A DNA stretch of 9,488 nucleotides from a virus (lineage: Duplodnaviria; Heunggongvirae; Uroviricota; Caudoviricetes): the IMG/VR virus record IMGVR_UViG_2778261027_000012; one strand, 5' to 3'. The translations under genes were made by a program, and so were the position numbers. The notes below the pieces were generated by a model. It was not told where the DNA came from. It made no database searches and worked only from the letters and a program-made list of their open reading frames with translations. Shown piece after piece: positions 4,522-4,549 of this stretch. Position 1 is the first letter of the stretch. Every line of letters starts with the position of its first letter.

Positions 4522-4549
4522 ATGTTGATTACAAAAATGTAATCAACAT
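4522..4549. promoter_or_regulatory. Perfect 28-bp palindrome (12-bp arms, 4-bp spacer): candidate operator for the downstream moron gene
   Basis: ATGTTGATTACA-AAAA-TGTAATCAACAT, 165 bp upstream of the ModA-like gene start, just upstream of a consensus TATAAT (4576-4581), inside a 420-bp AT-rich non-coding leader. Confidence 0.5.

Follow-up and report, generated by a model that had tools for sequence, protein, structure and literature searches.

The palindrome upstream of the prophage gene paa contains a predicted CusR/HprR-type copper box

In a 9,488-nt stretch of DNA from a virus of the Caudoviricetes (IMG/VR record IMGVR_UViG_2778261027_000012; the window), a perfect 28-bp palindrome lies upstream of paa, which encodes an AcfC-family periplasmic solute-binding protein. 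The core of this palindrome is probably a copper box, that is, a site from which a CusR/HprR-type regulator would activate the paa promoter. The core matches the consensus for such sites, the promoter shares its layout with known copper-box promoters, and box and layout are conserved among paa promoters. In the literature that we searched, we found no link of paa (also called adfO) to HprR, CusR, or copper, and no account of its promoter regulation or its transcription start. The copper-box site of paa is apparently unreported, and it would be a new member of a known promoter class.

The palindrome (4522-4549) reads ATGTTGATTACA-AAAA-TGTAATCAACAT, with 12-bp arms around a 4-nt spacer, and lies at -192 to -165 relative to the ATG of paa (4714). 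An earlier interpretation of this DNA (the sequence-only reading) had described an exact inverted repeat that was far beyond chance for a 9.5-kb window, and both statements hold up. If loops of 0-20 nt are allowed, the number of perfect inverted repeats with 12-bp arms that is expected per window is 0.012 analytically and 0.013 by shuffling; just 3 of 300 shuffled windows contained any such repeat, while the window itself contains three (4522-4549, 5592-5615, and 8959-8988). As single-stranded DNA, the palindrome folds with an energy of -10.7 kcal/mol (z = -6.3). It does not match any Rfam family, and a repeat and motif search found no second copy of it within the window.

The inner part of the palindrome (ATTACAAAAATGTAAT, 4528-4543) matches ATKACANNNNTGTMAT, which is the footprint-derived 6-4-6 consensus of the CusR/CopR/PcoR-like regulator AgrR (PMC7380067), with no mismatches. 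No other site in the window matches with one mismatch or fewer (0.10 are expected), and a perfect match is expected just 0.0024 times per window, or about 1.4 times per 5.5 Mb. The paa core is also identical at 15 of 18 positions (16 of 18 in plasmid variants) to CATTACAAAATTGTAATG of E. coli K-12, which was named the HprR(YedW)/CusR box of hiuH (PMC9302797). Both promoters have ATTACA/TGTAAT half-sites with a 4-nt spacer, and the sequence that begins 5 nt after the box, TGTAAGGTT, is identical as well. Two papers report that the hiuH operon is induced by copper via CusSR and by hypochlorous acid (HOCl) via HprSR. The E. coli CusR box is AAAATGACAAnnTTGTCATTTT. The palindrome shared by CusR, CopR, and CzcR of Pseudomonas (P. 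paraeruginosa) has ATTACA/TGTAAT half-sites, and so does the PcoR box of the pcoA region in the sil/pco island of a Klebsiella plasmid (ATTACAATCGTGTAAT). The regulators of these systems (PcoR, those of P. paraeruginosa, CopR of P. syringae with its "cop box", and AgrR of C. metallidurans) belong to other species or to plasmids. Overall, comparing the palindrome to known regulator motifs, as the sequence-only reading had suggested, identified its core as a perfect CusR/HprR-type copper box.

We compared the paa promoter to reference promoters that we read directly from K-12 DNA (hiuH and cusC) and from the Klebsiella sil/pco island (silE, silC, pcoE, and pcoA). Seven promoters have a box, a direct-repeat half-site 5 nt later, and a -10 element after another 21 or 22 nt (Table 1), which puts a -10-like hexamer 32-33 nt after the box in every comparison promoter. 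In paa, TATAAT (4576-4581) follows the palindrome and lacks a good -35 element, as the sequence-only reading had noted: the -35 position reads AGGTTT, and there is nothing like TTGACA 16-18 bp upstream. This is as expected for a promoter that depends on an activator.

Table 1. Layout of paa and comparison promoters
Promoter	Box to third half-site	Third half-site	Distance to -10	-10 hexamer
paa	ATTACAAAAATGTAAT-caaca-TGTAAG	TGTAAG	21 nt	TATAAT
hiuH (K-12)	cATTACAAAATTGTAATgctgcTGTAAGGTT	TGTAAG	22 nt	TATCCT
cusC (K-12)	ATGACAATTTTGTCAT-ttttc-TGTCAC	TGTCAC	22 nt	TAAAGT
silE	ATGACAAAGATGTCAT-tagcc-TGTCAT	TGTCAT	22 nt	TATAAT
silC	ATGACAACATTGTCAT-tatcc-TGTCAC	TGTCAC	22 nt	TAAAGT
pcoE	GTGACAAAAATGTCAT-cgttc-AGTCAC	AGTCAC	22 nt	TATAAT
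pSTEC299_1 DUF305 (412-465)	ATGACAAAAATGTAAT-catta-TGTAAG	TGTAAG	21 nt	TAAAAT

There are also differences. The hiuH box, in the hprRS-hiuH-msrPQ intergenic region, is 70-87 bp before the start codon and beside the genes for its own regulator, whereas the paa box is 170-187 bp before the ATG, with no such regulator nearby; the spacer is AAAA in paa versus AAAT in hiuH, and the -10 element matches the TATAAT consensus in paa but is TATCCT in hiuH. The boxes of cusRS/cusCFBA, sil, and pcoE share with paa the 6-4-6 form, the third half-site, the distance to the -10 element, and long near-perfect palindromes, but their half-sites are ATGACA/TGTCAT, with the alternative bases at the K and M positions of the consensus. 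Also, they control metal efflux or metal-binding proteins, whereas the paa box precedes a gene for a colonization factor.

We propose that a phosphorylated OmpR-family response regulator of the CusR/HprR type would bind as a dimer to ATTACA-N4-TGTAAT, with a further contact at the direct-repeat half-site TGTAAG (4549-4554), which is in place of a -35 hexamer. RNA polymerase would then be recruited to TATAAT, and transcription would start about 7 nt after it, near 4588, which would give a leader of about 126 nt. The palindrome, which the sequence-only reading had placed in the transcribed leader, is most probably upstream of this predicted start instead. The candidate regulators that are encoded in the E. 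coli chromosome are HprR, which responds to HOCl or H2O2 via HprS, and CusR, which responds to copper or silver via CusS; PcoR or SilR are also candidates where plasmids supply them. The suggestion that the cognate factor is encoded by the host fits well with this match to the CusR/HprR family, as the candidates are chromosomal and are not in the window. The hiuH operon responds to both copper and HOCl, through CusSR and HprSR, respectively, and since paa has half-sites of the hiuH type, it is predicted to respond to both signals as well. The horizontally acquired paa/adfO gene would thus bring its own promoter and plug into the host's sensing of copper and oxidants. We infer binding, activation, the transcription start, and the dominant regulator from comparisons of sequences.

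To see which parts of the promoter are conserved, we considered paa promoters that have unrelated flanking sequences and whose proteins are 85-100% identical. An invariant block comprises ATTACA-AAAA-TGTAAT, CA(A/T), and TGT(A/C)AG-GTTTAT, and a TATAAT-like hexamer lies exactly 32 nt after TGTAAT. In other words, three islands are conserved at fixed spacing: the box, the half-site that follows it, and the -10 element. The 12 specified positions of the box are invariant in seven variants of the paa promoter. The eighth, L114 (85% protein identity, from a scan of viral contigs), reads ATGACAAAAATGTAAT-cataa-TGTAAGGTTT; its half-site is ATGACA instead of ATTACA, and this lone substitution lands exactly on the degenerate K position of ATKACANNNNTGTMAT.

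The outer parts of the palindrome are not conserved. Only the prophage lineage has 12-bp arms; pMD25 has arms of 10 bp and Z1323 of 9 bp, while all the others have 6 bp, and the outer 6 bases of the arms vary across paa promoters without compensatory changes. The energy of the hairpin ranges from -14.0 to -2.4 kcal/mol across variants that keep the sequence of the box. Since the core is kept while the stability of the hairpin is not, the constraint is on a sequence-specific dyad and not on a hairpin. Of the 28 bp that the sequence-only reading described, the inner 16 bp (plus the half-site at 4549-4554) stand as the functional unit, while each arm's outer 6 bp belong to one lineage only, and the extension to 12 bp is probably not required for function.

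These results also bear on whether the palindrome might function as a hairpin in DNA or RNA, either as a terminator or insulator against phage early read-through, or as a cruciform or recombination hotspot behind the junction of paa with an upstream pixH remnant (described below). The palindrome is about 10 bp from that junction, the hairpin is stable in the prophage lineage, and the left edge of the paa module is at most ~25 bp from the box in at least five contexts. But the stem is rich in A and T and is not followed by a run of T, other variants keep the 16-bp sequence although their hairpins have only -2.4 to -5 kcal/mol, and no second copy or inverted partner is present at the other end of the module. 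We consider a hairpin role to be highly improbable. An intrinsic (Rho-independent) terminator was rejected in particular: just 3 of the 12 pairs in the stem are G-C, the stem is followed by GTAAGGTTTATAC, and a terminator scan does not call the palindrome.

We also searched more widely for the long form of the motif. A scan of genome contigs for the exact motif with 10-bp arms gave 15 matches, all of which are unrelated hairpins in other phyla, with none in another enterobacterial representative. In viral contigs, 44 of the 45 matches were the same pixH/paa junction. The sequence-only reading had proposed a search of related prophages for the half-site; this search for the long-armed motif recovered the junction in viral contigs but no wider enterobacterial occurrence. 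At this stringency there is no regulon, and the functional unit does not comprise the long arms. Scanning viral contigs for the box together with the third half-site gave more than 120 matches, mostly metagenomic, which are probably due to chance; the one useful outcome was the L114 variant.

Another explanation for the palindrome is that all 28 bp are the operator of a symmetric repressor that silences paa. Such a repressor would be a dimer, or two dimers, of a TetR-like or phage-repressor-like protein, and the prophage might encode it. Perfect 12-bp arms are far beyond chance, and a gene for a winged-helix-turn-helix (DUF1627) protein, at 3120-3854, is 700 bp upstream. The sequence-only reading had stated that no regulator gene was evident nearby; this overlooked the DUF1627 gene, but it was right that there is no cognate regulator: plasmids without the DUF1627 gene still carry the box, so the product of this gene is not the cognate factor. 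More broadly, no regulator gene beside paa was common to the 12 plasmid and 5 chromosomal contexts that we compared, and plasmids retain the box although they share no neighboring regulator. A repressor's operator is also hard to reconcile with the lack of conservation or compensation in the outer 6 bp of each arm, with the absence of the 10-bp-arm motif from the other enterobacterial genome representatives that we scanned, and with the location of the site, which is upstream of the promoter and not over it. Thus, between the activator site and the repressor operator that the sequence-only reading left side by side, a repressor operator is very unlikely, and the copper box, at the same distance from the -10 element as in cusC, silC, silE, pcoE, and hiuH, favors the activator.

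Several other classes of sites were considered and rejected. The consensus for FNR is TTGAT-N4-ATCAA and for CRP is TGTGA-N6-TCACA; TTGAT and ATCAA are both present here, but with 12 nt between them, and most variants lack the left TTGAT. CpxR binds direct repeats (GTAAA-N5-GTAAA) with a 10-bp period, while GTAAT (4539) and GTAAG (4550) are 11 bp apart. In all, the consensus sequences for FNR, CRP, CpxR, TyrR, NikR, NsrR, and ModE fail on either the spacing or the half-site. Fur was ruled out as a regulator of paa by published quantitative reverse-transcription PCR. The palindrome is also not the terminal inverted repeat of an insertion sequence or a miniature inverted-repeat transposable element, given its single copy in the window and the single junction behind nearly all of the viral matches.

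Some circumstantial observations fit with a copper box upstream of paa. In EHEC (enterohemorrhagic E. coli) strain EDL933, where paa is Z2053, expression in bovine rumen content rose together for cusC (+3.5 log2), cusF (+4.0), and Z2053 (+2.4). According to a 2026 paper on HprR in EHEC (PMC13064566), HprR binds the hiuH promoter in EDL933, and loss of hprR led to less adherence to HeLa cells. Reduced adherence was also reported for an adfO mutant (PMC8565820).

Other observations weigh against a copper box that works in this way. First, the distance from the box to the -10 element is 32 nt in paa instead of the 33 nt in hiuH, cusC, silC, silE, and pcoE (the DUF305 promoter of pSTEC299 also has 32 nt), so that the center of the box, as judged from the predicted -10 element, is at about -52.5 versus about -53.5 in the reference promoters, where all starts are predicted. 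Second, an alternative -10 element, TATACT at 4559-4564, would put the box near -35.5; by comparison with the other promoters, TATACT is unsupported by the architecture of the family. Third, the ninth paa variant, ST2350 (pEsST2350_SE_2, 2317-2333), has ATTACA-AAAAA-TGTAAT, in which both half-sites are intact but the spacer is 5 nt long. This 6-5-6 spacing should misalign the half-sites, and it may leave the promoter inactive or under different regulation. Fourth, the chromosomal Paa homologs of Edwardsiella, Enterobacter, Raoultella, E. albertii, and Yersinia (74-87% identity) have other upstream regions, in which we found no box, so the box promoter is confined to the mobile E. coli/Salmonella clade of paa and does not extend to the whole family. 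Fifth, when EDL933 was placed in rectal content, Z2053 rose by 3.2 log2 without a rise in cusC or cusF. Sixth, the 2026 EHEC paper, which includes RNA sequencing of an hprR mutant and chromatin immunoprecipitation sequencing with 41 HprR peaks and a 27-fold enrichment of hiuH, does not mention adfO or paa in its main text (PMC13064566). Finally, cross-talk is possible, since binding of PhoB to the cus and hiuH boxes has been observed.

This last point raises the question of which regulator is involved. Another member of the OmpR family might be responsible, such as PhoB (which responds to phosphate starvation), or only the plasmid-encoded PcoR or SilR, with HprR and CusR being irrelevant in vivo. 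In K-12, chromatin immunoprecipitation on microarrays and electrophoretic mobility shift assays found binding of PhoB at the cusR/cusC and yedW/yedX boxes (TCATTACAAAATTGTAAT), and boxes with the paa half-sites serve other regulators (PcoR at pcoA; CusR, CopR, and CzcR of Pseudomonas, which share one palindrome). But the pho box is a direct repeat, and the binding of PhoB at the cus and hiuH boxes was weak or required a high concentration of protein. As for PcoR or SilR alone, most of the EHEC chromosomes that carry paa are not known to carry pco or sil. Furthermore, a box of the hiuH type was driven by HprSR and by CusSR in reporter assays. It is unlikely that HprR and CusR play no part.

The similarity of the paa and hiuH promoters extends for about 15-20 bp to the left of the box (AAACAGCCTGGTTC in hiuH; ACAGCCTGGGC and AAACGACCTGTGC in the paa variants STEC299 and RHB16), so the paa promoter may descend from an intergenic region like that of hprR-hiuH. 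The box might then be just a relic of this common descent, with paa being expressed from elsewhere or constitutively, and the long leader of 126 nt might fit with this. However, variants whose surroundings have diverged heavily have kept all three elements of the promoter (box, third half-site, and -10) as well as their spacing, which is the signature of purifying selection. We think that a nonfunctional relic is quite unlikely.

The window comes from a lambdoid prophage and spans its immunity-to-Q segment, with genes in the order cI/cro-like, ydaT, DnaT-domain replication protein, lambda P homolog, DUF1627, DUF968, rusA, and Q. RefSeq describes the product of 4714-5472 as "AcfC family adhesin Paa," and its identification with adfO/z2053 of OI-57 is based on PMC8565820. 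In EDL933, this gene is followed by ckf/hok; in the window, Rfam reports sok at 5661-5810. A 421-bp query that included the palindrome was found, at 99% identity or above, in 592 of 5,426 complete E. coli genomes, mostly EHEC or Shiga toxin-producing strains.

Table 2. Features in the window
Feature	Position	Strand	Evidence
Degraded pixH (PapH-like minor pilin) remnant, last ~13 codons lost at the paa junction	4020..4514	+	alignment, translation
Perfect palindrome, 12-bp arms, AAAA spacer	4522..4549	.	direct sequence, repeat statistics, fold
Conserved core ATTACA-AAAA-TGTAAT, 6-4-6 copper box, predicted HprR/CusR site	4528..4543	+	motif match, conservation
Third half-site TGTAAG, direct repeat 5 nt after the box, roughly in the -35 region	4549..4554	+	same spacing in comparison promoters
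Predicted -10 element TATAAT, 32 nt after the box	4576..4581	+	sequence; TATAAT/TATAGT/TATGAT at fixed 32 nt in paa variants
Shine-Dalgarno sequence AGGAG of paa	4703..4707	+	sequence; kept in alignment of paa promoters
paa/adfO (Z2053 in EDL933), AcfC-family periplasmic solute-binding protein, 252 amino acids	4714..5472	+	open reading frame; Pfam SBP_bac_11 (E = 5.5e-34)
Two hairpins after paa	5479..5526	+	terminator scan, sequence

RefSeq's annotation (from PGAP) includes a "fimbrial protein" pseudogene, frameshifted and with an internal stop, at 4020-4553, so the palindrome is formally within a coding sequence. This is pixH, which is 86% identical to an intact pixH from a plasmid over 4048-4512. 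Beyond ~4512-4514, the C-terminus of PixH (...LRFKLDYE) is replaced by unrelated sequence, which stays open until a TAA at 4551-4553. Because the homology to pixH ends at ~4512, the reading frame through the palindrome and its stop codon are fortuitous, and the annotated 3' end, where the final ~13 codons belong to the paa module, is spurious. We therefore rejected the idea that the palindrome is fimbrial coding sequence, which corrects the annotation: the site is not the coding 3' end of a fimbrial pseudogene.

Instead, a ~1-kb paa module is inserted in the pixH remnant, and the palindrome lies within this module, about 10 bp from its left edge. The plasmid pMD25 has a homolog of paa with 81% DNA identity, and the shared sequence begins at ~4513-4523, with a wholly different context upstream. 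We compared eleven further contexts of paa homologs, from IncF plasmids. Among the window, pMD25, Z1323, STEC299, ETEC1749, RHB16, SalMiami, and ST2350, the sequences become similar to one another some 10-25 bp left of ATTACA and stay so through paa and the two hairpins to ~5527; similarity to the plasmid modules stops at ~5527-5530. By these alignments, the palindrome is the first recognizable feature of the module. The two hairpins (CGTCC-TTCA-GGACG and then a run of T, 5479-5492; ATGCCGC-GCCA-GCGGCAT, 5509-5526) are likely terminators as well as the right end of the shared module. Homology to other prophages stops at ~4025, and the prophage must have received the module and a pixH fragment together.

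In at least five unrelated flanking contexts (~4508-4521 in the window, and the equivalent positions in plasmids), the left edge of similarity is at most ~25 bp from the box. The junction with pixH carries an ATTAC/AATAC microhomology. At the module's left edge, we did not identify a transposase, a terminal repeat, or a recombination site that would explain this constant boundary. Alleles of paa with 67-87% protein identity have wholly different upstream regions, so the promoter has been replaced repeatedly in this family.

The paa module resembles a phage "moron," which has its own promoter and terminator: it is a ~1-kb unit with the box promoter, paa, and two hairpins. In this lambdoid prophage, the unit occupies part of the nin region, with the DUF1627 gene on one side and hok/sok on the other. 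The same unit also occurs on IncF plasmids. Unlike a typical moron, it arrived with a fragment of a fimbrial gene, which implies a plasmid intermediate, and its promoter is predicted to depend on a two-component system of the host.

HprR and CusR are described as nearly single-target regulators in E. coli K-12, acting on hprRS/hiuH and cusRS/cusCFBA (PMC8249747). A third site of this class, on an acquired colonization gene, would show a mobile gene recruiting a narrow sensory circuit of the host. It would also predict a concrete environmental cue for the virulence-associated paa, namely copper or silver, or HOCl or H2O2. It might contribute to the need for HprR during adherence by EHEC that the 2026 paper reports (PMC13064566). 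More speculatively, and we hold this to be doubtful, Paa/AdfO might not be primarily an adhesin but rather the periplasmic solute-binding part of a mobile, HprR/CusR-dependent response to envelope stress from copper or oxidants. If so, then the loss of paa induction would explain part of the defect of EHEC hprR mutants in adherence and colonization, and this "porcine attaching-effacing associated" factor would be tied to copper in the gut (such as from copper-supplemented pig feed) or to HOCl from neutrophils.

Some more distant relatives of paa have suggestive neighbors. In Acinetobacter plasmids from mining soil and oil-contaminated soil (5977-7571 and 6977-8571), a Paa homolog with 41% identity has copB and a DUF411 (CopG-like) gene as its neighbors; we did not find a copper box upstream of this homolog. 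In Riemerella anatipestifer (NZ_CP081930, 5974-8436), a Paa-family gene within a suf cluster is beside genes for a "copper resistance protein NlpE" and a hydroxyisourate hydrolase. The latter is a homolog of HiuH, whose gene shares the paa-type box in E. coli. These neighborhoods may hint, but no more than hint, at a role for the Paa family in the physiology of copper or oxidants.

On pSTEC299_1, the other copper-box promoter in Table 1 precedes a DUF305 gene (642-1013) and a gene for a YncE-like beta-propeller protein (1000-2064). This unit is directly upstream of the paa module, so there are two box-driven units in tandem. DUF305 and DUF411 genes also belong to the Klebsiella sil/pco island.

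The other two perfect inverted repeats in the window are in different settings. The one at 5592-5615 (CCGATATGGGAATTCCCATATCGG) has no spacer. It lies outside the paa module, just past its right end, and the sok match of the hok/sok (ckf) locus follows about 45 bp downstream; as DNA the repeat folds with an energy of -10.2 kcal/mol (z = -3.3). The one at 8959-8988 (AACAAAACCCGC-N6-GCGGGTTTTGTT) directly follows the gene for the Q antiterminator (8203-8898) and looks like a late-operon terminator (similar to tR'), with two tRNA genes downstream (9094-9166 and 9260-9333). Finally, a prophage of O157:H7 strain PV15-279 (2783-3995) is otherwise identical, but its DnaT-domain gene is split by IS1203, while the copy in the window (~1517-2632) is intact.
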